From: Minisyncoccota bacterium
GTDB lineage: Bacteria > Patescibacteriota > Minisyncoccia > UBA6257 > 2-01-FULL-56-20
Assembly (NCBI GenBank): GCA_025449695.1
Contig: JANWIW010000013.1
Coordinates: 1-56,023, forward strand
Reading direction: 5' to 3'
DNA length: 56,023 bases
Shown here: positions 157-16,752 of the stretch, in pieces
How the letters are laid out: each line of letters opens with the position of its first letter
Numbering within the stretch: position 1 is the stretch's first letter
Notes under the pieces: model-generated
Databases searched by the model: none
The model's input: the letters and a program-made list of their open reading frames with translations, nothing else
What the model was told of the DNA's origin: nothing
Made by a program: the position numbers and the translations under genes

Positions 157-1707
157 TCAATTGGCCGTTGCGGGAAATGTGTTATTCATGGACCATCCCC
201 TGGCAGTAAACTCCGCCCTGAAGCGGGAAGTGTACGCGATAACACCCCGCGCCTGGTCGCTCTTGCCTAGCGCAGGCTTGGGCGCCAGAGAGTACTTCTC
301 GTCGTGGTCTTCGTAGTTCGGAATGAGAATGCCCCAGCGGACCAGTAGAGCGAAGGCCGTTCTGTAGTTACGGCGGCGGAACTTCAGATCGAGCTTGTCG
401 TACTGCTTCTCGACCCGATCCTGAATGTCCCCTTCCGCACGGCAATCGCTGCCGAAGCTCTTCACGTCCCTGCCGAGGCCGAGTACCGCGATGAGGATCT
501 GCTTCGCCATGAGCACGTCGGGCCACCCTTCGAGAAACGGCTCGACCTGGAAACGGCGATTCGCCTCGACGCAAAGCTCCACGATGACCGTTGCCGGCAT
601 CGTCCAGTCGGCCGGATGCGCATTCTCGTTACCGTTTCCATTGCCGTTGCCGTTCCTCGGCACTTCTGCCTTAGGCCCGGACTGCGCTTCCGAAACCAAG
701 CGAGGAGCCTTCTCAAAACGCGTCGGCGGCCGGCGGGCGAGAGCCCTGTTCTGCATGCTCTCCCGAACCTCTTTCCTCTTCTCGGGCTTTACGTCAGGCC
801 GAAGCGCGCGCCTGATCTGGCGTGCTTCGCTCGAGGCGGGCGGGAACTTGAGCAAAAGGTCGCGCAGATCATTCTCGAGCTTGGCAAGTTTTTCTGCCGT
901 CCTCAGTTCGTCCGCCGTCTGCTTGACTCTTGCCCGCTCGGCCTCCAGCCGGGCGATCTTGGACCCCAAGCGTTCGTGCGTCTTTTGCTGAAGACGGATC
1001 AGCCGCAACGTCAGGACGAATTGCAGGAAGCCCGGGATCCGGACCGTCCCGGTCTCGCCGCCGGCAAGCCGCGCTATCTCGTGGAGCGGCTCATCGAAGG
1101 AGTTCCGGAACGCGCGGTACGCCGAATGCATGCCCCGTGGCCCGGTTCCGATGCACCACATCCCGGAGGCCGCGAAGATCGCTGCGATCAGGACCCAATA
1201 CGGCATTACGACGAAGGCTACTCCGAGATCGTGGTCGAGCGGGAAGATGACGAAGAGCCGCGCGTGTATGGGCGGCACCCTGACCGCTTGGTAGATCGGA
1301 TTGAGGAACGTCACGCCCACGATCGCGAACGGCAACCCGATCGCCTTGAGGAGTGCCAGGTTGCGGCCGCGGGTGATACGGGTGGACTTCTTGCAAAACT
1401 CGCCATAGAGCCATCCGCCCCACGTGAGGGCGACGACGCCCAAGAGCATGGCGGTAAGCGCGAATCCGATCTCGAGCTGGCGGCCCTCGAGGAACTGCCC
1501 CAACGGATCAGCCAAGTACCAGTCGATCAACCATTCGTTCCTCATGAACGGATGGGGCTTGGACTGTCCGATCTGGAGACGGTATCCATCGCGCGATAGG
1601 AGCACAAGTCCGGAGCCGGCTCTCATCAAGAACCATCCTCCCATGACGAGCGCGATCACGCCGCTTGCCACGAACACGAGCGCTTTCTGCTTCTTCTGAA
1701 TGGCCAT
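157..1707 (-). CDS. Membrane-anchored coiled-coil protein with an (NG)n linker and an unassigned C-terminal globular domain
   Basis: Track ORF 157..1737. I moved the start to the ATG at 1707 (MAIQKK...) because GGGAGGG lies just upstream. It has several N-terminal hydrophobic helices, a charged heptad-like stretch (ARLEAERARVKQTADELRTAEKLAKLENDL) and an NGNGNGNGN run. No family recognised. Confidence 0.6.
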   Translation of the reverse strand: MAIQKKQKALVFVASGVIALVMGGWFLMRAGSGLVLLSRDGYRLQIGQSKPHPFMRNEWLIDWYLADPLGQFLEGRQLEIGFALTAMLLGVVALTWGGWLYGEFCKKSTRITRGRNLALLKAIGLPFAIVGVTFLNPIYQAVRVPPIHARLFVIFPLDHDLGVAFVVMPYWVLIAAIFAASGMWCIGTGPRGMHSAYRAFRNSFDEPLHEIARLAGGETGTVRIPGFLQFVLTLRLIRLQQKTHERLGSKIARLEAERARVKQTADELRTAEKLAKLENDLRDLLLKFPPASSEARQIRRALRPDVKPEKRKEVRESMQNRALARRPPTRFEKAPRLVSEAQSGPKAEVPRNGNGNGNGNENAHPADWTMPATVIVELCVEANRRFQVEPFLEGWPDVLMAKQILIAVLGLGRDVKSFGSDCRAEGDIQDRVEKQYDKLDLKFRRRNYRTAFALLVRWGILIPNYEDHDEKYSLAPKPALGKSDQARGVIAYTSRFRAEFTARGWSMNNTFPATAN

Positions 1708-1847
1708 AAGCCCTCCCTTCCGATCCCAGTCTCTCAACAGCCATATTCTGGAGTCTGGGTTCTATTCTCAATCAATCACTCCTCGGGGGTTTTGTCAAAG
1801 GATGGCTGGGAAGGGCCAGGTTTGCCCGCGAGCAGCGGGCCGTACAA

Positions 1848-1873
1848 ACAAAAAACCGCTTAAGATGCTTAAG
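1848..1873 (-). terminator. Intrinsic terminator at the end of the 23S-5S unit
   Basis: On the minus strand the sequence reads CTTAAG-CAT-CTTAAG (a self-complementary hairpin) followed by CGGTTTTTTG. It overlaps the extended 5S helix I. Confidence 0.5.
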
Positions 1874-1990
1874 TGTCGGCACATCCTACTTTCCCCGATA
1901 AATCGAGTATCATCGGACATGCAGCGTTTCACTACTCTGTTCGGAATGGGAAGAGGTGGTTCCACTGCATATAAAGCACCGACGCTTAAA
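1870..1990 (-). rRNA. rrf: 5S rRNA
   Basis: The reverse complement contains CCCATTCCGAACAGAGTAGTGAAACGCTGCATGTCCGATGATACTCG. Helix I pairs GCGTCGGTGC with GTGCCGACAC. Ends are accurate to about +/-5 nt. Confidence 0.85.
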
Positions 1991-2048
1991 TGCCCTAAAC
2001 GGTTCTATGGCTGCGCTCTCGCGCTTCGCGCGAGACCTTAAAGATAGT

Positions 2049-2207
2049 CCCCTTTCGCTAAAGCTTCGGAGGGACATAAGAATCCCTAAAACGCGATTAC
2101 GCGTTTTAAAGATTGTTGCCCCACTTCGCTCTTACCAACGAAGCGGGTGTCCCCCTTCGCTAAAGCTTCGGAGGGACATAAGAATCCCTAAAACGCGATT
2201 ACGCGTT
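2049..2207 (-). repeat. Two ~57-nt direct repeats in the 23S-5S spacer
   Basis: Positions 2049-2106 and 2150-2207 are near identical (ccc(c)tt(t)cgctaaagcttcggagggacataagaatccctaaaacgcgattacgcgtt). Each holds a CCUUCG/CGGAGG hairpin and an aacgcg-atta-cgcgtt hairpin. Confidence 0.85.
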
Positions 2208-2519
2208 AAGGGATTCTAATGTAAGTCAGCATTGGGATGGTTGGCGGGTATTAGTACTCCTTGGCTCAAAACCTCACGGTCCTTACACCTGGAGCCTATC
2301 AACGTCGTAGTCTTCAACGAACCCATACTACCTAATCTTGGAGTGGGCTTCGTGCTTAGATGCTTTCAGCACTTATCCCGTCCGCACATAGCTACCCGGC
2401 GGTTCAGCTGGCGCCAAAGCCGGTAGACCAGAGGTACGTTCAACCCGGTCCTCTCGTACTAGGGTCAACTCTCCTCAAGTAGAAACGCCTGCAGCAGATA
2501 GAGACCAACCTGTCTCACG

Positions 2520-2973
2520 CATGTTCGAGTATTTAGTAACTGGTAATCAGTAACTAGGACTTCGAATCCGTTATTACTAACGGTTTGGACTATACCACCC
2601 TCTCTCGCGAGAGGATCGACGTATTAGCAGCCGCTATTGGCGGGCCGCTCCGTCCATCTTCAAAGAAGATGGAACAAGTCTCTACGGGGTTATATCTCGA
2701 TATCTTTTTCCACTGAGATCCGGACCAAAACACGCCCTTGGGCGGCGTCGATCGGATGATTCAGCGGGCGAAAAGATTGATCGAGGATAAACTTCCCTCG
2801 GAATTGTCCGCAGCGAAGTAGGTTGTGGAACTTCGCAGGGATTTCTCCGATATGAGTCGATTTGTGCACCCATGCGTTGCCGCATGGGGCCGCCGTGTAC
2901 GATGTCTTAACTTTCATTGGCACCCGGTCCAGTTGTTCGGGAGGACGCCTTCGCGCCCCTCGAACGGTTGTTG
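2520..2973 (-). mobile_element. Group-I-type intron in the 23S peptidyl-transferase region (about E. coli U2593), with no convincing ORF
   Basis: The exon reads ...GGGTTCAGACCGT | intron | CGTGAGACAGGTTGGTC. The joined exons match the conserved AGAACGUCGUGAGACAG. The 5' exon ends in U and the intron ends in G. Confidence 0.75.
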
Positions 2974-3622
2974 ACGGTCTGAACCCAGCTCACGTGCCCT
3001 TTTAATTGGCGAACAGCCAAACGCTTGGGAGCTTCTCCACCCCCGCGCTAGGGCGAGCCGACATCGAGGTGCCGAGCGATGCCGTCGCTATGGACGCTCG
3101 GGCATCACTAGCCTGTTATCCCCGGAGTAGCTTTTATCCGGTGTCTCCCACCTTTCTATGAAGAATGGTCGGGTCACTAAGTTCTGCTTTCGCATCTGCG
3201 CGACTTGTAGGTCTTGCAGTTAAGCCGGCTTCCGCCTTTACGCGTCCGGCCCGGTTTCCATCCGGGCTAAGCCGACCTTAATAAACTCCTCCGTTACTTT
3301 TTGGGAGGAAAACGCCCCATTTAAACTACCCACCAAGCACTGTCCCAGCGGAGTTTCCGTGTGGTCATCCGCCGGTGAGACGTCAAAGTCTTGAAGATGG
3401 CTGTTTCATTGTCGCCTCCACGATCCCCGAAAGGACCGCTTCAAAGGCTCGCCACTACGCTACGCATCAAAACTCTGAAATCAATACCAGGCTGCAGTAA
3501 AGCTTCCGGGGTCTTTTCGTCCCGCTGCAGGTATCCCGCGTCTTCACGGGAATCGCAATTTCACCGAGCTCATCTTTGAGACAGTTCTCCAGTCGTTACG
3601 CCTTTCGTGCGCTTCGGAACTT

Positions 3623-4381
3623 CATTCCATTTTCTTATCTTACGATAAGGATCAGACTATATCTTCATCTTTCCCGAAGAAGTTCTTGGATTTCCTCTTT
3701 CGTTTGCTTGCGCTTTCCAGAACCGTTCATCTAATATGTCAAATCCAGAATTTCCAAAAAACCATTCCTGGTCAGATGGAAATCTTGATTTATTTTTAGA
3801 CATATCATTCTGAACAGCTCGAAATCGCGTTGCTTGAACGAAAGCAGAGGAAACCTTCCAAAGTGAGGGATGATACGATGCATGAGATCATCGTGATCTC
3901 GAACTTCGAATTTCACGGTTTTATCTGCATAATCGCGGCGGATGTAGCCGCATCCGAAGTATTTCTGGATGATATCCAAAACTTGACGCCTGTCTTCGTT
4001 TTGGCTCACCGAGAAACTTGGACGCAGTTCCCAGCCCAATAATGCCTTATCCTTCATATTGAAGGTAACCGTAAAACACCCTTCACCATCGACATAACCA
4101 GAAATGTATTCCGGTATGTTCCTTGAACTCTTCGGCAAAGCGGTTGGCGTGTAATAGGCAGAATTTTCTGCGCTATTTCGGCTTTTCGCCTCAGTCGTTA
4201 CGGGGTCATTCCGGCTTTTCGCCGGAAGACTTCCCACGGTATTGTCCAGTTTGCTTGCAGCGCGGCCCATAATTCATTGTGAACAAGCCACAAGAACATG
4301 GCCAACTGTGCATAACTGGATTTCACCGTTATTAGCCAACTTCTTCGATCGAGATTGCTCTCGAAAGGGGCAAGTTCGTTT
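3623..4381 (-). mobile_element. Group-I-type intron at about E. coli U1951, carrying a LAGLIDADG ORF
   Basis: The mini-exon ends ...TTTTCGGGT and the 3' exon resumes AAGTTCCGAAGCGCACGAAAGGCG. The 5' exon ends in U and the intron ends in G. Confidence 0.8.
3731..4270 (-). CDS. LAGLIDADG homing endonuclease (single-motif type), intron-encoded
   Basis: 179 aa. Contains the motif YISGYVDGEGCFTV. Its size and position inside the intron fit an I-CreI-like enzyme. Confidence 0.85.
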   Translation of the reverse strand: MGRAASKLDNTVGSLPAKSRNDPVTTEAKSRNSAENSAYYTPTALPKSSRNIPEYISGYVDGEGCFTVTFNMKDKALLGWELRPSFSVSQNEDRRQVLDIIQKYFGCGYIRRDYADKTVKFEVRDHDDLMHRIIPHFGRFPLLSFKQRDFELFRMICLKINQDFHLTRNGFLEILDLTY

Positions 4382-4401
4382 ACCCGAAAAGGAATTGCGC
4401 T

Positions 4402-5080
4402 CAATTGTGTTACTCTGTCCGCTTCCTTTCGCGGACAACTCTCTATGTCGCCATAGAGTTCGGACTATATCTTCTCCGGCTTGCGCCGGGTCCGGCATAT
4501 AGTCTCTGAGGATTCTAAGAACGGATCTTTCTGCGGTTCGTCCTAGCAGCTAGCTTCAGAATGCTGTTCCATCCCGTTTCCTTGAGATGTTTCTTTTCAT
4601 ACATCATCGCAACAACTTTCTTGAATATCTCAAAATCGTTGCGCTTATATGTTCTGAGTGGAAACTCGTCGAAGAATGGAATGATGACATGATGAAGTTC
4701 TGAGATGGATCGTACGCAATACCGATATAGATGTTCATTATGGTCATCGTATCGTTTGTTAAGCACGATGCTACCGCAACCGAAGAAGTCTTTCGCTTCT
4801 TGCAGTGCAAGCAGGCTCTTCGCGCTCTGCGTGATCACAAACTCAGGAAATATCTGTTTTCCGAACCGAGTACTGGAATTACGGATCACCGAAACAGCAA
4901 AGCATCCTTCGCCGTCCGTGAATCCGGATATCCAGGAACCCATTATTAGCCTTTCCTGCTGATTGTCTGCACCACTCACATTTTCACTGTACTTCCGGAA
5001 GTATAGAACTTCCAAAGGCAGTAGTTGTGGATACTCAGATGTTCCAGCATATAGCCGAATTTTACTAAGGCAAGCAATTC
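4402..5080 (-). mobile_element. Group-I-type intron at about E. coli U1931, carrying a LAGLIDADG ORF
   Basis: The 5' exon ends ...AACTATAATCGTTCTAAGGT and the next exon begins AGCGCAATTCC. The 5' exon ends in U and the intron ends in G. Confidence 0.8.
4515..5015 (-). CDS. LAGLIDADG homing endonuclease (single-motif type), intron-encoded
   Basis: 166 aa. Contains the motif WISGFTDGEGCFAV. The real start may be the internal MGSW. Confidence 0.85.
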   Translation of the reverse strand: MEVLYFRKYSENVSGADNQQERLIMGSWISGFTDGEGCFAVSVIRNSSTRFGKQIFPEFVITQSAKSLLALQEAKDFFGCGSIVLNKRYDDHNEHLYRYCVRSISELHHVIIPFFDEFPLRTYKRNDFEIFKKVVAMMYEKKHLKETGWNSILKLAARTNRRKIRS

Positions 5081-5357
5081 ACCTTAGAACGATTATAGTT
5101 ATCGCTGACATTGACGAGGGCTTCACTCAGTCGGCAGTACGGGTTGCCCCGCACCACTGCCAAGTTTGACCTTCTCGCATCGGTCAGGCGTCACCCCCTA
5201 TACATCCTCTTGCGAGTTAGCAGGGAGCTGTGTTTTTGGTAAACAGTCGCCAGAGAGACTTTCACTGCGGCCTATCGAGGCTGGAAGAAGGAGACGAGAC
5301 GCTCCCACTTAAGGAGGGCCTCGTGCTCCGATTTGTTGTGATCGCGAAGGAAGGGAA

Positions 5358-5434
5358 TGGTTCCCAGGGACGGAATTGAACCGCCGACACGTGGGTTTTC
5401 AGTCCACTGCTCTACCAGACTGAGCTACCTGGGC
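5358..5434 (-). tRNA. tRNA-Phe(GAA)-like gene with encoded CCA, embedded in the 23S insertion
   Basis: GCCCAGGTAGCTCAGTCTGGTAGAGCAGTGGACTGAAAACCCACGTGTCGGCGGTTCAATTCCGTCCCTGGGAACCA. It folds as a full cloverleaf with anticodon loop CUGAAAA. The mismatches are G1-A72 and A31-C39. Confidence 0.7.
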
Positions 5435-5465
5435 ATGTCCCATTCTCCGCATTTTCGCAAAGAAT

Positions 5466-5500
5466 TGGTCGGGGCGACGGGACTCGAACCCGTGACCTCA
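5466..5500 (-). ncRNA. tRNA-like 3' module (variable loop, T-arm, acceptor 3' strand and ACCA; tRNA-Pro-like) with no recognisable 5' half
   Basis: GAGGTC-ACGGG-TTCGAGT-CCCGT-CGCCCCG-A-CCA. I found no adjacent D-arm or anticodon arm. Confidence 0.4.
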
Positions 5501-7350
5501 CGTTCTTCGCTTCGAGGAAACCGCAGAGAGCCGGAAGGAGCGGACGAAGCTTACCCCATCCACCCGCGCTGCCAGGCACCCTCCTGACTCTCCGCGTTTT
5601 CCTCGCAATTTATTCGTAATGGGCCGGCCGGAGGCGCGGTCGCTTACAGGAGGTTCTCCGGCGGCTTTACGCAGAGAACCGTTTTGCGGAAGCTGGGCCT
5701 GACCAGACTTCCAACCCGCCAGCGCGCTGCGCCTACCGGCCTTCCCGAATGTGCTACAACAAAAGAGACAGCATGCGGCAGGGTTTATCTCCCCGCATAC
5801 GACCCCGAGAGGCCGCATCACATCATGTGTGTAGGCAGCATGCGATCAGGAGGCGGTGAGCCGACCCCGATCGTGACGCAGCACTGACTCCTTCTTCCAA
5901 CCTCGACAGGCAGGCCTTATACCGAAGGTACGGCCGCTTTTTTGCCGAGTTCCTTAAAGATGACTCACTCGTTCCCCTTAGGCTTCTCGCCTCACCCACC
6001 AGTGGCGGTTTACGGTACGGTAACCGTACGCTCGTTTTCATTGGACTTTTCTCGGAAGGCTCTTCGGAAACATTTGCCCGGTAAAACCGGACATTCCCCC
6101 GCCCTCGGCCGGAGCCTTCGGGTAGGGATGCCAATCCAATAAGGCACGTCTCTTTATTTCCTTCGCATCCAACTATGATCGTACGGCTGTGCTGGAATAT
6201 TAACCAGCCTGCCATCGGCTGCGGCTTTCGCCATTGCCTTAGGGCCGACTAACCCGTGGTTGATTGCCAGTGCCACGGAAACCTTGGATTTTCGGGGTCA
6301 CATTTTCGCATTGTGATAGTGGTTACTCATGCCAACATTCTCACTTCCTGACGCTCCACAGGCCCTCGCGGGTCCTGCTTCGTCGCAGACAGGAATGCTC
6401 TCCTACCGCTCAGACGTTCCCGAAGGAACGATTGAACCCATAATTTCGGTACTATGCTTAGCCCCGATACATTTTCGGCGCGCCTTGCCGTCGAATAGTG
6501 AGTTGTTACACACTCTTTAAAGGATGGCTACCTCTAAGCCAACCTCCTATCTGTCTGTGGCACGACACTGCCTTTTACACTTAGCATAGATTTAGGGACC
6601 TTAATTGATGGTCTGGGCTGTTCCCCTCGCGTACATGGAGCTTAGCCCCCACGTACTAACTAGAGTACTTGCATGTCCGGTATTCGGAGTTTGACTAAGA
6701 GGCCGGCCTTTCGGCCATTACCCCTCAACCAGTAGCTCTACCCCCAGACATTACGTAGCTCCGCCAGTCCTAAAACTGTTTCGGAGAGAACTAGCTATTA
6801 CCGAATTCGATTAGCTTTTCACTCCTTACCTCAGCTCATCCCAAGGTGTTGCACAACCCACGGGTTCGGTCCTCCCCCCGTGTTTCCACGGGGTTCAACC
6901 TGGCCAAGGCAAGCTCATCCGGCTTCGAGTCTTAGGTATGCGACTGAAATTTTCGCGCTATTAACACTCGGTTTCCCTGCGGGTTCGCCCTCGAAAGGAC
7001 TTACCCTTGCCACATACCTAAAGTCGTTGGCTCATTCTTCAATAGGCACACTGTGGACCTTGCGGTCGCCAGTTCCTTGTAAACAGATGGTTTCAGGTTC
7101 TATTTCAACGGCCTCACCGGCCTGCTTTTCACCTTTCCCTCACGGTACTTGTGCACTATCGATCAACAAATGTATTTAGCCTTAGGAGATAGTACTCCCA
7201 GGTTCCCTCGAAGCTGTTTTACCTCGAGGTACTCAAGAAAAGAAACTGAAGAGTTCATCAGTTTTCGCCTACGGGGCTATCACCCGCTCTGGCGCGCCTT
7301 TCCAGGCGGCTTCGGCTAACCAACGAATTTGTGACTCTTTCTTAGAACAC

Positions 7351-7434
7351 AGGTGTTAGGTGTCAGGTTGCAGGTTATAGAGAAGAATACGATTGTTTCC
7401 GCTCTATGACCTGCAACCTTTAACCTAAAACCTA
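7351..7434 (-). repeat. Low-complexity hairpin insertion in 23S domain I
   Basis: aggtgttaggtgtcaggttgcaggttatagag pairs with ctctatgacctgcaacctttaacctaaaacct. It sits just 5' of the conserved CTGGAAAGGCGCGC...AGCCCCGTA block. Confidence 0.7.
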
Positions 7435-7475
7435 TCTTCCAGCGTTTCATCCTTTCAACACTGATCAAAAGATCA

Positions 7476-7508
<33 letters not shown>

Positions 7509-7747
7509 TAGGGAATGCTTCCACTTGCGTGGACTTTTTTTCATTTCCTCTGGCTACTGAAATGTTTTACTTCACCAGGTTTGCCCCTCCTTGCGGAGGT
7601 TACTGAGGTTTGCTCAATAGGGTTGCCCCATTCGGAAATCCCCGGGTCATCGGTCGCTCCGCACCTCACCGGGGCGTATCGCCGCTACGCGGCGTCCTTC
7701 ATCGCCATTTGTTGTCTAGGCATCCTCCATCTGCTCTTATGCCAACC

Positions 7748-7765
7748 ATCCCAATGCTGACTTAC
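7748..7765 (-). other. 23S leader arm of the processing stem (partner at 2221-2238)
   Basis: Positions 7742-7765 are the exact reverse complement of 2221-2244 (24 bp). The outer 18 bp extend beyond helix 1, as an RNase III-type processing stem does. Confidence 0.7.
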
Positions 7766-8291: not shown

Positions 8292-9029
8292 TCAGATACG
8301 TGTGACATTCACGAGGAAGCCTTTGTGGTCGGAAAGGCCGCTCACGATCTGTACGTCTTCGACGAGGTATTGAGGACTCGTGAAAATCCCGTCTACCACG
8401 ATAGGCAACGCGCCGTCGTAATGGAACCTGCCGTCGATCGTGCTCTTCACGTGAGCCGGCACGTTATCTCGAAGACGGGCGGCGAGCCCGTCGAAGATCT
8501 CCGCGCCGCGTGCAGTGTTCAGATCTACGCCGAGCACGACCTCCGGAAAGAGATCGAGCACGCGCGACATCCGCTCCGCGCTCGCGAGTTGCACCTCAGT
8601 CGGATAGATCGCTCGGGGAGCCCAGGTGAAGTGAGTGGTCGCCAGCATGAAGGGAACTCCCTCGACATCGGCGGTCGCAGCAAAGACAAGCTCTCGCTGC
8701 GCAGGACGGATATCCGATCGGATCGAACGATCGGGAAAGCTGCCGTTTCCTACCCGATAAACGAATTCCCGCACTTCGGAAAGATCGCATCTCGAAAGGA
8801 TGCCGAGTCCCCATTGTCCCGTCGTCCGCCCATCGTCGTAGGTGGACATCGGCGCAAATTCAACCCGGTATCCCAGACGCTCGAACGCGGGGATGTCTCC
8901 GGTTCGGAGTTCCTGGCAAAGGACCACGCCCGGCCGTTCCTCACGGAGGAATTGCAGGACCTGCGCCAGCGTCTGTCCGCACCAAAAGTTCAGACAGAAG
9001 ACCAGAAGCTTGGCGTGAGGTGTACGCAT
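8292..9029 (-). CDS. Endonuclease/exonuclease/phosphatase (EEP) family protein
   Basis: 245 aa. The layout (LCQEL..., THFTW, GVDLN, final SDHKGF) is typical of the EEP fold. GAGGAGGGGG Shine-Dalgarno lies before the ATG. Confidence 0.8.
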   Translation of the reverse strand: MRTPHAKLLVFCLNFWCGQTLAQVLQFLREERPGVVLCQELRTGDIPAFERLGYRVEFAPMSTYDDGRTTGQWGLGILSRCDLSEVREFVYRVGNGSFPDRSIRSDIRPAQRELVFAATADVEGVPFMLATTHFTWAPRAIYPTEVQLASAERMSRVLDLFPEVVLGVDLNTARGAEIFDGLAARLRDNVPAHVKSTIDGRFHYDGALPIVVDGIFTSPQYLVEDVQIVSGLSDHKGFLVNVTRI

Positions 9030-16679: not shown

Positions 16680-16751
16680 TCCGGCGTAGCTCAATGGTAG
16701 AGCGGCTCCCTGTTAAGGAGATGGTTCCAGGTTCGAGTCCTGGCGCCGGAG
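16680..16751 (+). tRNA. tRNA-Asn(GTT), CCA not encoded
   Basis: TCCGGCG TA GCTC AATGGTA GAGC G GCTCC CTGTTAA GGAGA TGGTT CCAGG TTCGAGT CCTGG CGCCGGA G. Confidence 0.9.
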
Positions 16752-16752
16752 C

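Follow-up and report, generated by a model that had tools for sequence, protein, structure and literature searches.

The tip of helix 63 in the 23S rRNA gene of a Minisyncoccota bacterium (assembly GCA_025449695.1) carries a 638-nt block that contains two tRNA-derived units. The block occupies positions 5272-5909 of the 56,023-nt stretch of contig JANWIW010000013.1 that we analyzed (the window) and replaces a 12-nt hairpin of syntenic relatives. Sequence comparison identifies it as a genuine lineage-specific insert of the intervening sequence (IVS) type and not an intron. We lean toward reading it as an IVS-type spacer with variable tRNA cargo that is co-transcribed with the 23S rRNA and probably removed through cleavage by RNase III, RNase P or both.

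The helix-63 insert

The original prediction, made from the letters of the window, had placed a large insertion in 23S helix 63, and both the Rfam placement of the large-subunit (LSU) rRNA and a covariance-model alignment bear this out. In the local alignment, 617 nt are left unaligned at the helix tip, between AAGGAACUCGGCAAA and CUGUUUACCAAAAACACAG (model positions ~1763-1767). The closing stem proposed at the same time, in which 5909-5888 pairs with 5293-5272 over 22 bp including two G-U pairs, is present as described, and the minimum free energy (MFE) fold lengthens it to 24-25 bp (5911-5888 with 5293-5270) (Table 1). The folding energy of the whole insert has a z score of -7.8 against shuffles.

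As expected of an IVS, the insert replaces the apical loop of a variable helix, its ends pair (22-25 bp), and its occurrence among close relatives is sporadic. A search of 5150-6050 with Rfam at E ≤ 1 found no group I or group II intron, and we rejected both identities, as the covariance models revealed no ribozyme core. Together with the absence of the block from syntenic relatives and the compensatory changes in its helix, this supports the earlier view of a stem-closed, non-intron insert of the IVS type. Open reading frames (ORFs) within this insert were likewise dismissed, being short and of a composition unlike that of proteins. The 387-nt cargo has no relative in phages, plasmids or any of the fetched loci, and no promoter or terminator was found on the minus strand within 5200-6000.

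Table 1. Features of the helix-63 insert and its host gene, and tRNA-derived units in helix 45 of other 23S genes (L numbers denote loci of the comparison set)
Locus	Feature	Position	Strand	Support and remarks
Window	Closing helix, 5′ strand, continuing helix 63	5888-5911	-	GCCUGUCGAGGUUGGAAGAAGGAG; inner end AAGGAG; MFE fold
Window	Highly structured cargo, 387 nt	5501-5887	-	GC 0.62; no Rfam family; ORFs non-coding-looking
Window	tRNA 3′ fragment: variable loop, T arm, acceptor 3′ strand, A73, encoded CCA	5466-5500	-	Sequence; T-arm motif scan
Window	31-nt spacer with small hairpin (5443-5464)	5435-5465	-	Fold; akin to the spacers on either side of the L238 tRNA-like units (ATTC...GCGGAGAAT)
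Window	tRNA-Phe(GAA)-derived cloverleaf, encoded CCA	5358-5434	-	ARAGORN; Rfam tRNA, 56.2 bits (gathering score, 29)
Window	Hairpin abutting the 3′ strand of the closing helix	5296-5322	-	Fold
Window	Closing helix, 3′ strand	5270-5293	-	CUCCUUCUUCCAGCCUCGAUAGGC; inner end CUCCUU; MFE fold
Window	Host 23S rRNA gene	2232-7752	-	Rfam LSU_rRNA_bacteria, 2036.8 bits, model 1-2925
Window	Group I intron in 23S	3633-4391		Rfam, 55.3 bits
Window	5S rRNA	1874-1983		Rfam
L211	tRNA-Cys	Helix 45		63 bits
L230	tRNA-Lys	Helix 45		68 bits
L223	Asp-like unit, anticodon AUC (A34)	Helix 45		51 bits
L221	tRNA-Trp with C33	Helix 45		52.6 bits
L209	Leu(UAA), Met(CAU), Ile(GAU, C33)	Helix 45, between 23S blocks		ARAGORN only
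L226	Degenerate relic ending ...CUCUCCACCA	Helix 45		Unscored
L231	Lone T arm	Helix 45		Unscored

Closing helix and interiors in related genomes

Loci L081 and L083 have the same gene order as the window (lamin-tail-domain [LTD] protein, 23S, and 5S beside a reductase), and their 23S genes are ~86% identical to that of the window in a three-way MAFFT alignment (87.6-88.9% by BLAST). In both, the helix-63 site is occupied by GCC-CUUCGCAAGAAG-GGC or something very similar, and no tRNA was found anywhere in their 23S genes. It is because these two relatives have only the 12-nt hairpin that we regard the 638-nt block as lineage specific. Helix 63 lies on the ribosome surface and is normally reduced in this group (PMC9297842). 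A scan of species-representative genomes with a conserved helix-62 30-mer returned 30 Patescibacteria loci, most of them with a minimal hairpin.

The closing helix of the window, absent from L081 and L083, is shared by L220 (a Liptonbacteria metagenome-assembled genome [MAG]), L233, and L238 (the closest 23S relative of the window, at 91%), where it encloses interiors of 145, 731 and 459 nt, respectively. Across the four genomes, 98.8% of cells pair; three pairs are changed on both sides and four through G-U, and one G-U pair is conserved. When the partner was slid as a control, pairing fell to 41-60%. The pairing and the compensatory changes therefore indicate that the helix is maintained at the RNA level, a finding that speaks against both an assembly artifact and a DNA transposon with terminal inverted repeats. 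Outside the helix, the four interiors have no significant similarity, except that the spacers of the window and L238 share the arrangement tRNA 3′ end-CCA-AUUC...GCGGAGAAU.

A 300-nt stem-closed insert without a tRNA is also found in helix 45 of L083 (~3393-3745, minus strand), with a 20-bp helix and a CUCCUC end. L081, a 92% identical sister of L083, has no helix-45 insert, which points to rapid gain or loss of such inserts. As the scaffolds of L220, L233 and L083 have no tRNA, the carrier can evidently do without one. The MAGs L209, L221, L223, L233 and L238 are titled "uncultured Candidatus Saccharibacteria," and the 23S genes of L238 and L233 are 87-91% identical to that of the window; the title seems to have been given to Patescibacteria in general and is untrustworthy for taxonomy.

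The tRNA-Phe unit

The unit at 5358-5434 had been described as a full cloverleaf with anticodon GAA and an encoded ACCA. ARAGORN, which calls Phe(GAA), and the Rfam tRNA covariance model both accept the cloverleaf, and its sole mismatches are exactly the two named before, G1-A72 and A31-C39. The anticodon loop (CUGAAAA), A73, CCA, the signature bases of the T and D loops, and the bases of the tertiary interactions are all intact. In the isolated 77-mer, the cloverleaf is the MFE structure, at -25.7 kcal/mol compared with -34.1 for the canonical tRNA (8.4 weaker). With ordinary tRNA-Phe genes that encode CCA, from Alphaproteobacteria, Acidobacteriota, Bdellovibrionales and other groups, the unit has 93-96% identity. 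The T arm is identical, the 28:42 pair is compensated, and the D loop has one extra base.

Both mismatches fall at uniform positions: C72 and U39 are found throughout the 40 commonest of the ~120 tRNA-Phe variants compared. A72 and C39 both break pairs, and the unit fails to form the full acceptor- and anticodon-stem pairing seen in its homologs. Its Rfam tRNA score is 15-17 bits lower than that of canonical copies (71.5-73.3 bits). Because of the two pair-breaking changes and this deficit, tRNA function is doubtful. Of the original prediction of a tRNA gene, the cloverleaf stands, but the idea of a working gene is weakened by A72 and C39, by the low score, and by the class-incompatible anticodons in L238 described below. 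Rather than the cell's working tRNA-Phe, the unit is more likely to be a copy that is relaxed or in decay, or else a handle for processing.

The unit is 93% identical to the tRNA-Phe of Azospirillum versus 80% to a copy without CCA in a Moranbacteria MAG, the sole tRNA-Phe from the candidate phyla radiation (CPR) in the comparison. Its 28-nt 3′ half is exactly common to the tRNA-Phe of many phyla, with none from the CPR among the matches listed. We set aside an argument for foreign origin from these similarities, as tRNA-Phe is too strongly conserved for them to discriminate and the GC content of the insert matches that of the host. A donor search of phages, plasmids and fetched loci gave matches confined to the tRNA-Phe part of the insert. 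Elsewhere, tRNA-Phe 3′ fragments (anticodon stem to CCA) follow unrelated sequence in L089 (~150-235) and L121 (1709-1736 and 5947-5974), which are Nitrospirae and Thermoanaerobaculia MAGs; such fragments have the look of attachment sites left behind by integrated elements. An annotated site-specific integrase lies ~320 nt downstream of tRNA-Phe in Azospirillum B510 (L085).

The second unit

The sequence at 5466-5500 reads as the original prediction had it, that is, as a variable loop, T arm, acceptor 3′ strand, A, and CCA. Its likeness to tRNA-Pro is plausible but not unique, as an exact 28-mer is found in a tRNA-Leu(TAG) with a C1-G72 pair on a metagenome contig. The upstream CGGGGUC, offered as a distant 5′ acceptor strand of this unit, had to be given up, since it occurs at chance level (5 observed versus 5.07 expected in shuffles). 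The exact 29-mer of the unit is absent from the genome contigs searched.

We also considered and rejected a donor in which tRNA-Pro is followed by tRNA-Phe: only three alphaproteobacterial loci came into question, and the ...ATCGCCCCGACCAAC... found there is promoter-region sequence upstream of tRNA-Phe, not tRNA-Pro. In L086 (5230-5295) and L088 (90-150), a conserved alphaproteobacterial GACUGGACAGGC...CUCUAUAUCGCCCCGACCAACACGGA stands immediately upstream of tRNA-Phe, for which it presumably serves as promoter. The CGCCCCGACCA string within it matches the 3′ end of a tRNA-Pro by coincidence.

tRNA units nested in other 23S genes

The helix-63 insert of L238 holds three tRNA-like units (52.0, 50.7 and 57.5 bits), whose bodies are like those of tRNA-Ala, tRNA-Ile and a tRNA with U73 (Cys or Gly). 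The anticodon loops in these units are a 9-nt loop, AGA, and GCU, with which class-I tRNAs cannot decode. Further nested tRNAs occur at a second site, a hairpin aligned to L081 1302-1323 with the flanks CCGAA...GGUAGGGGAGC (model position ~1205). We take this site to be helix 45, the classic IVS site, partly by reference to the E. coli sequence. Counting both rRNA sites, the nested arrangement is found in 7 of the ~34 Paceibacteria 23S genes sampled and comprises 12 units (three each in L238 and L209, two in the window, and one each in L211, L230, L223 and L221). A T-arm motif scan detected 13 T arms in inserts, the lone arm of L231 included, and none in 6.5 kb of ordinary 23S. Since tRNA-bearing inserts of the same architecture are present in six other 23S genes, an assembly chimera is very unlikely.

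All 12 nested units lie on the 23S strand (P = 0.0005 by unit; P = 0.016 for 7/7 inserts). CCA is encoded by 10 of the 12, versus 1 of 13 stand-alone tRNA genes in Parcubacteria-type loci (P = 0.0002 by Fisher's test). The same contrast had been pointed out within the window and holds: tRNA-Asn (16680-16752) ends in ...CGCCGGAG followed by CAUG, without an encoded CCA, and both nested units encode it. Homologous scaffolds hold differing tRNAs, as in L211 (Cys) and L230 (Lys), in L209 (Leu/Met/Ile), L223 (Asp-like) and L226 (a relic), and in the window (Phe) and L238 (Ala/Ile/Cys-like). It follows that the carrier is conserved and the tRNAs are its variable cargo. Good cloverleaves and CCA persist even in units whose anticodons are scrambled; their shape may be under some selection, or their decay may be recent. 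The nested tRNAs of L209 show no unusual closeness to any plasmid-borne tRNA. In L229, a CCA-encoding tRNA-Glu is located just downstream of the 23S gene.

The carrier itself is uniform in design. In 11 of 11 stem-closed inserts examined, with or without a tRNA, a helix of 18-25 bp is accompanied by a 17-35-nt hairpin, which is separated by 0-1 nt from the 3′ strand. At its inner end, the helix has the motif RAAGGA(G)/(C)UCCUUY, which is like Shine-Dalgarno and anti-Shine-Dalgarno sequences, in 9-10 of the 11 inserts at the two rRNA sites (named for the window, L238, L233, L220, L223, L226, L211, L221 and L083).

Proposed processing and competing explanations

In the reading that we favor, the insert would be transcribed as part of the 23S precursor, its long (about two-turn) closing helix would be cut by RNase III, and RNase P would cleave where the tRNA module begins, at its 5′ end. 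These cuts would remove the cargo and leave the 23S rRNA, after intron removal, as two pieces of ~1.8 kb and 1.1 kb, held together by the remaining rRNA structure, with tRNA-shaped pieces released as by-products. More speculatively, the hairpin adjacent to the 3′ strand could, with the helix, halt exonucleolytic trimming. From what is established about RNase P, the enzyme would be expected to act on any folded cloverleaf with ACCA that forms part of a transcript. No RNase gene was seen among the window ORFs scanned; in the CPR at large, rnc, rnj and pnp are among the few ribonuclease genes retained (PMC12641178).

Several observations weigh against the spacer reading. We infer excision, 23S fragmentation and tRNA release from sequence, and all of the comparison sequences are metagenome assembled. 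L220 and L233 have the same scaffold without a tRNA. The CCA contrast spans mostly different genomes, the window itself providing one stand-alone tRNA only (Asn). The Phe unit keeps its anticodon loop and all tertiary-interaction bases, and some nested tRNAs look fully canonical (Lys of L230, 68 bits; Cys of L211, 63 bits; Leu and Met of L209).

The preserved features of the Phe unit (with them A73, CCA, the T- and D-loop signature bases, and a cloverleaf that is the MFE fold) and the canonical-looking nested tRNAs are what would be expected if the unit were the cell's working, possibly only, tRNA-Phe(GAA). It would then be expressed off the strong rRNA promoter like spacer tRNAs, the stem being a processing signal that lets the 23S tolerate the nesting. 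The co-orientation of all nested units with the 23S, the lack of an upstream 16S gene and hence of the usual spacer home for tRNAs, and the CCA-encoding tRNA-Glu directly after the 23S in L229 also agree with such a role. We nevertheless hold it to be doubtful, as A72 and C39 break pairs at positions invariant in the 40 commonest variants, the D loop has an extra base, and the score is 15-17 bits lower. Moreover, the L238 units cannot decode (Ser anticodons in a class-I body, or a 9-nt anticodon loop), L223 has A34, L221 and the Ile unit of L209 have C33, and homologous scaffolds hold other tRNA types or none. Alternatively, the units could be inert cargo, that is, pseudogenes that drifted into an unconstrained IVS loop by recombination with tRNA genes or by capture of tRNA cDNA, with removal effected by RNase III at the stem alone. 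The tRNA-less scaffolds of L220 and L233, the interiors without shared similarity beyond the stem, and a decay series that runs from canonical units to the L226 and L231 relics and the 3′ fragment of the window are consistent with this possibility, as is the GC content of the insert, which equals that of the genome, as expected of unconstrained sequence. We think it rather unlikely all the same, given that 12/12 units are co-oriented and 10/12 keep CCA, that cloverleaf scores of 50-57 bits are retained even where the anticodon is scrambled, and that tRNA sequence is enriched in the insert loops over the control 23S, with no T-arm motif in 6.5 kb. A folded tRNA-like module would also, on general grounds, be expected to serve as an RNase P substrate.

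If the 638 nt were instead kept in the mature 23S rRNA as a surface extension at the site of expansion segment ES27L, the tRNA shapes would be structural. The insert is very stably folded and its basal helix is conserved, and helix 63 is solvent exposed and dispensable in this group (PMC9297842). This is improbable, however, because genomes with 84-91% identical 23S have interiors that vary extremely in length (145-731 nt) and sequence, close relatives do not have the insert, and RNase P would presumably be drawn to a cloverleaf exposed with its ACCA. In addition, CPR rRNA inserts are mostly missing from transcripts, according to a metatranscriptome comparison as cited by PMC9297842. That the assembly is chimeric, or that the block is a miniature transposon whose terminal inverted repeats span 22 bp, is hardly credible. 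The inverted repeats at the ends do match at 20/22 positions at the DNA level, and the tRNA-Phe copies nearest to the unit are from outside the CPR (Azospirillum rather than Moranbacteria). Yet the same helix is found at the same rRNA position in three independent assemblies, with G-U pairs and compensatory changes that fit RNA pairing; both flanks belong to the same 23S gene; and the design recurs in six other assemblies. A transposon or miniature inverted-repeat transposable element was rejected on the same grounds of arms that covary and keep their G-U pairs, and also on a single copy in the window and the lack of a target-site duplication at the junctions. The likelihoods that we attach to the spacer reading and to these alternatives belong to statements that overlap.

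A wider hypothesis, which we offer tentatively, holds that Paceibacteria may systematically nest CCA-encoding tRNA genes in stem-closed 23S spacers (helices 45 and 63). tRNA-processing enzymes would release the tRNAs and split the 23S rRNA, like tRNA punctuation in mitochondria, and some essential tRNAs (possibly with this tRNA-Phe among them) would be encoded only within the rRNA gene. The carrier would be one IVS family with an AAGGA(G)/(C)UCCUU end and a 3′ hairpin.

Comparison with known systems

Intervening sequences in 23S rRNA and tRNAs in the spacers of rRNA operons are both textbook phenomena. Bacterial 23S IVSs, the family to which the insert comes closest, occur in helices 9, 25 and 45 (Salmonella, Yersinia, Campylobacter, Leptospira, Coxiella, Rhizobiales) and are excised by RNase III without re-ligation. 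The insert resembles them in replacing the apical loop of a variable surface helix, in its paired ends, in its sporadic occurrence and in having no ribozyme core, and its tRNA-bearing sister inserts (L209, L211, L221, L223 and L230) sit at the classic helix-45 position. It differs in that helix 63 is not one of the described sites in the literature examined and in that its cargo is tRNA derived, whereas an IVS carries an ORF (S23p or IVP) or nothing. These inserts are also set apart by a conserved hairpin that adjoins the 3′ strand and by the AAGGA(G)/(C)UCCUU motif that ends the helix, and excision is here a prediction.

Like the tRNAs of operon spacers (16S-tRNA-Ile/Ala-23S, and distal tRNAs), which RNase P and 3′ processing set free, the nested units lie in the orientation of the rRNA, would be co-transcribed with it, and are bracketed by long processing helices; the L238 units even resemble the bodies of tRNA-Ala and tRNA-Ile. 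In contrast to operon spacers, the spacer is here within the 23S gene, the helix encloses the spacer and not the rRNA, and several units cannot decode. In function, the arrangement also resembles the mitochondrial LSU rRNA of Tetrahymena pyriformis, which is split with a tRNA gene between the parts (Heinonen et al. 1987, as cited in PMC3318907). There, too, a tRNA stands between two LSU parts that tRNA processing is presumed to separate, but the organellar pieces are rearranged, the rRNA is split at another site, there is no closing helix, and the tRNAs are functional. Eukaryotic ES27L also emerges from helix 63 (H63) and is about as large; it is retained and conserved within lineages, whereas the insert is absent in near relatives and hypervariable.

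The combination of a long terminal stem with tRNA-like modules is shared with YrlA (a Y RNA) and tmRNA, and Rfam gives weak matches to both (28.2 and 18 bits), far below the gathering scores of 69 and 47. We rejected these identities. The tmRNA match covers the 3′ end only and falls on the second unit, ARAGORN calls no tmRNA, and the pair 3:70 would be G-C, not G-U; the YrlA match joins the T arm of the second unit to the D arm of the Phe unit.

Full-text literature searches gave no report of a bacterial rRNA gene that contains tRNA genes or modules shaped like tRNAs, in keeping with the original remark that no bacterial 23S IVS with a tRNA gene is known to have been described. The most comprehensive survey of CPR rRNA inserts lists "long sequences (500-1,000 bp) of unknown function," suspects long uncharacterized non-intron inserts of being intervening sequences, and nowhere mentions tRNA (PMC11270868). 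The present results supply an identity for part of these inserts, and the finding of nested tRNAs extends past the window to two rRNA sites, with a shared scaffold, strict co-orientation and encoded CCA. If the units are processed, ribosomes would be built from 23S rRNA fragmented by means of tRNA-processing enzymes, and the cooperation of RNase P, RNase III and RNase J in minimal cells could be studied in a natural system. CPR tRNA inventories that mask rRNA genes may then miss real tRNAs or count pseudo-tRNAs.

Host 23S gene and genomic setting

The host is a Paceibacteria (CPR) bacterium, kin to Liptonbacteria. Its 23S gene lies next to genes for the LTD protein and the subunits of a class I ribonucleotide reductase, for which the closest named relatives are from Liptonbacteria and other Parcubacteria (60-65% identity) and metagenome proteins reach 76-79%. 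The reductase of the window has no database record of its own; the best reductase relative (79%) is on a contig that stops short of the 23S gene, and a scan of viral contigs for closer relatives gave no match. Rfam detected no 16S rRNA in the 56-kb window, so the 23S-5S pair is unlinked from 16S and the usual 16S-23S spacer site for tRNAs is missing. Besides the nested units, tRNA-Asn is the only tRNA in the window. The GC content is 0.60 for the insert, 0.59 for the genome and 0.52 for the 23S exons.

The host gene reaches 5,521 nt, compared with the 2,925 positions of the Rfam model, because of several lineage-specific insertions, which we mapped against L081 and L083. Inserts are present in 82% of CPR 23S genes (PMC11270868). 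Two of the window insertions contain LAGLIDADG endonuclease ORFs (3731-4270 and 4515-5015), and one of these insertions is the recognized group I intron (3633-4391). The second ORF lies in a 679-nt insertion (4402-5080, minus strand) that is 20 nt upstream, in the RNA, of this intron (bounded here at 3623-4381) and is not detected by the Rfam group I model. Four more small window-specific insertions on the minus strand (7345-7406, 2700-2774, 2627-2652 and 2523-2559) are plain hairpin extensions without tRNA motifs or the AAGGA/UCCUU motif.

Two further loci of the comparison set deserve mention. L084, a relative's contig, has a group I intron match outside 23S (8593-8877, plus strand; 65.5 bits), ~1.8 kb downstream of its reductase genes. 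L082, a Logan contig with a 73% identical reductase, carries 29 co-oriented tRNA genes and many small ORFs within 6 kb (1288-7265), which looks like a phage or mobile tRNA array.

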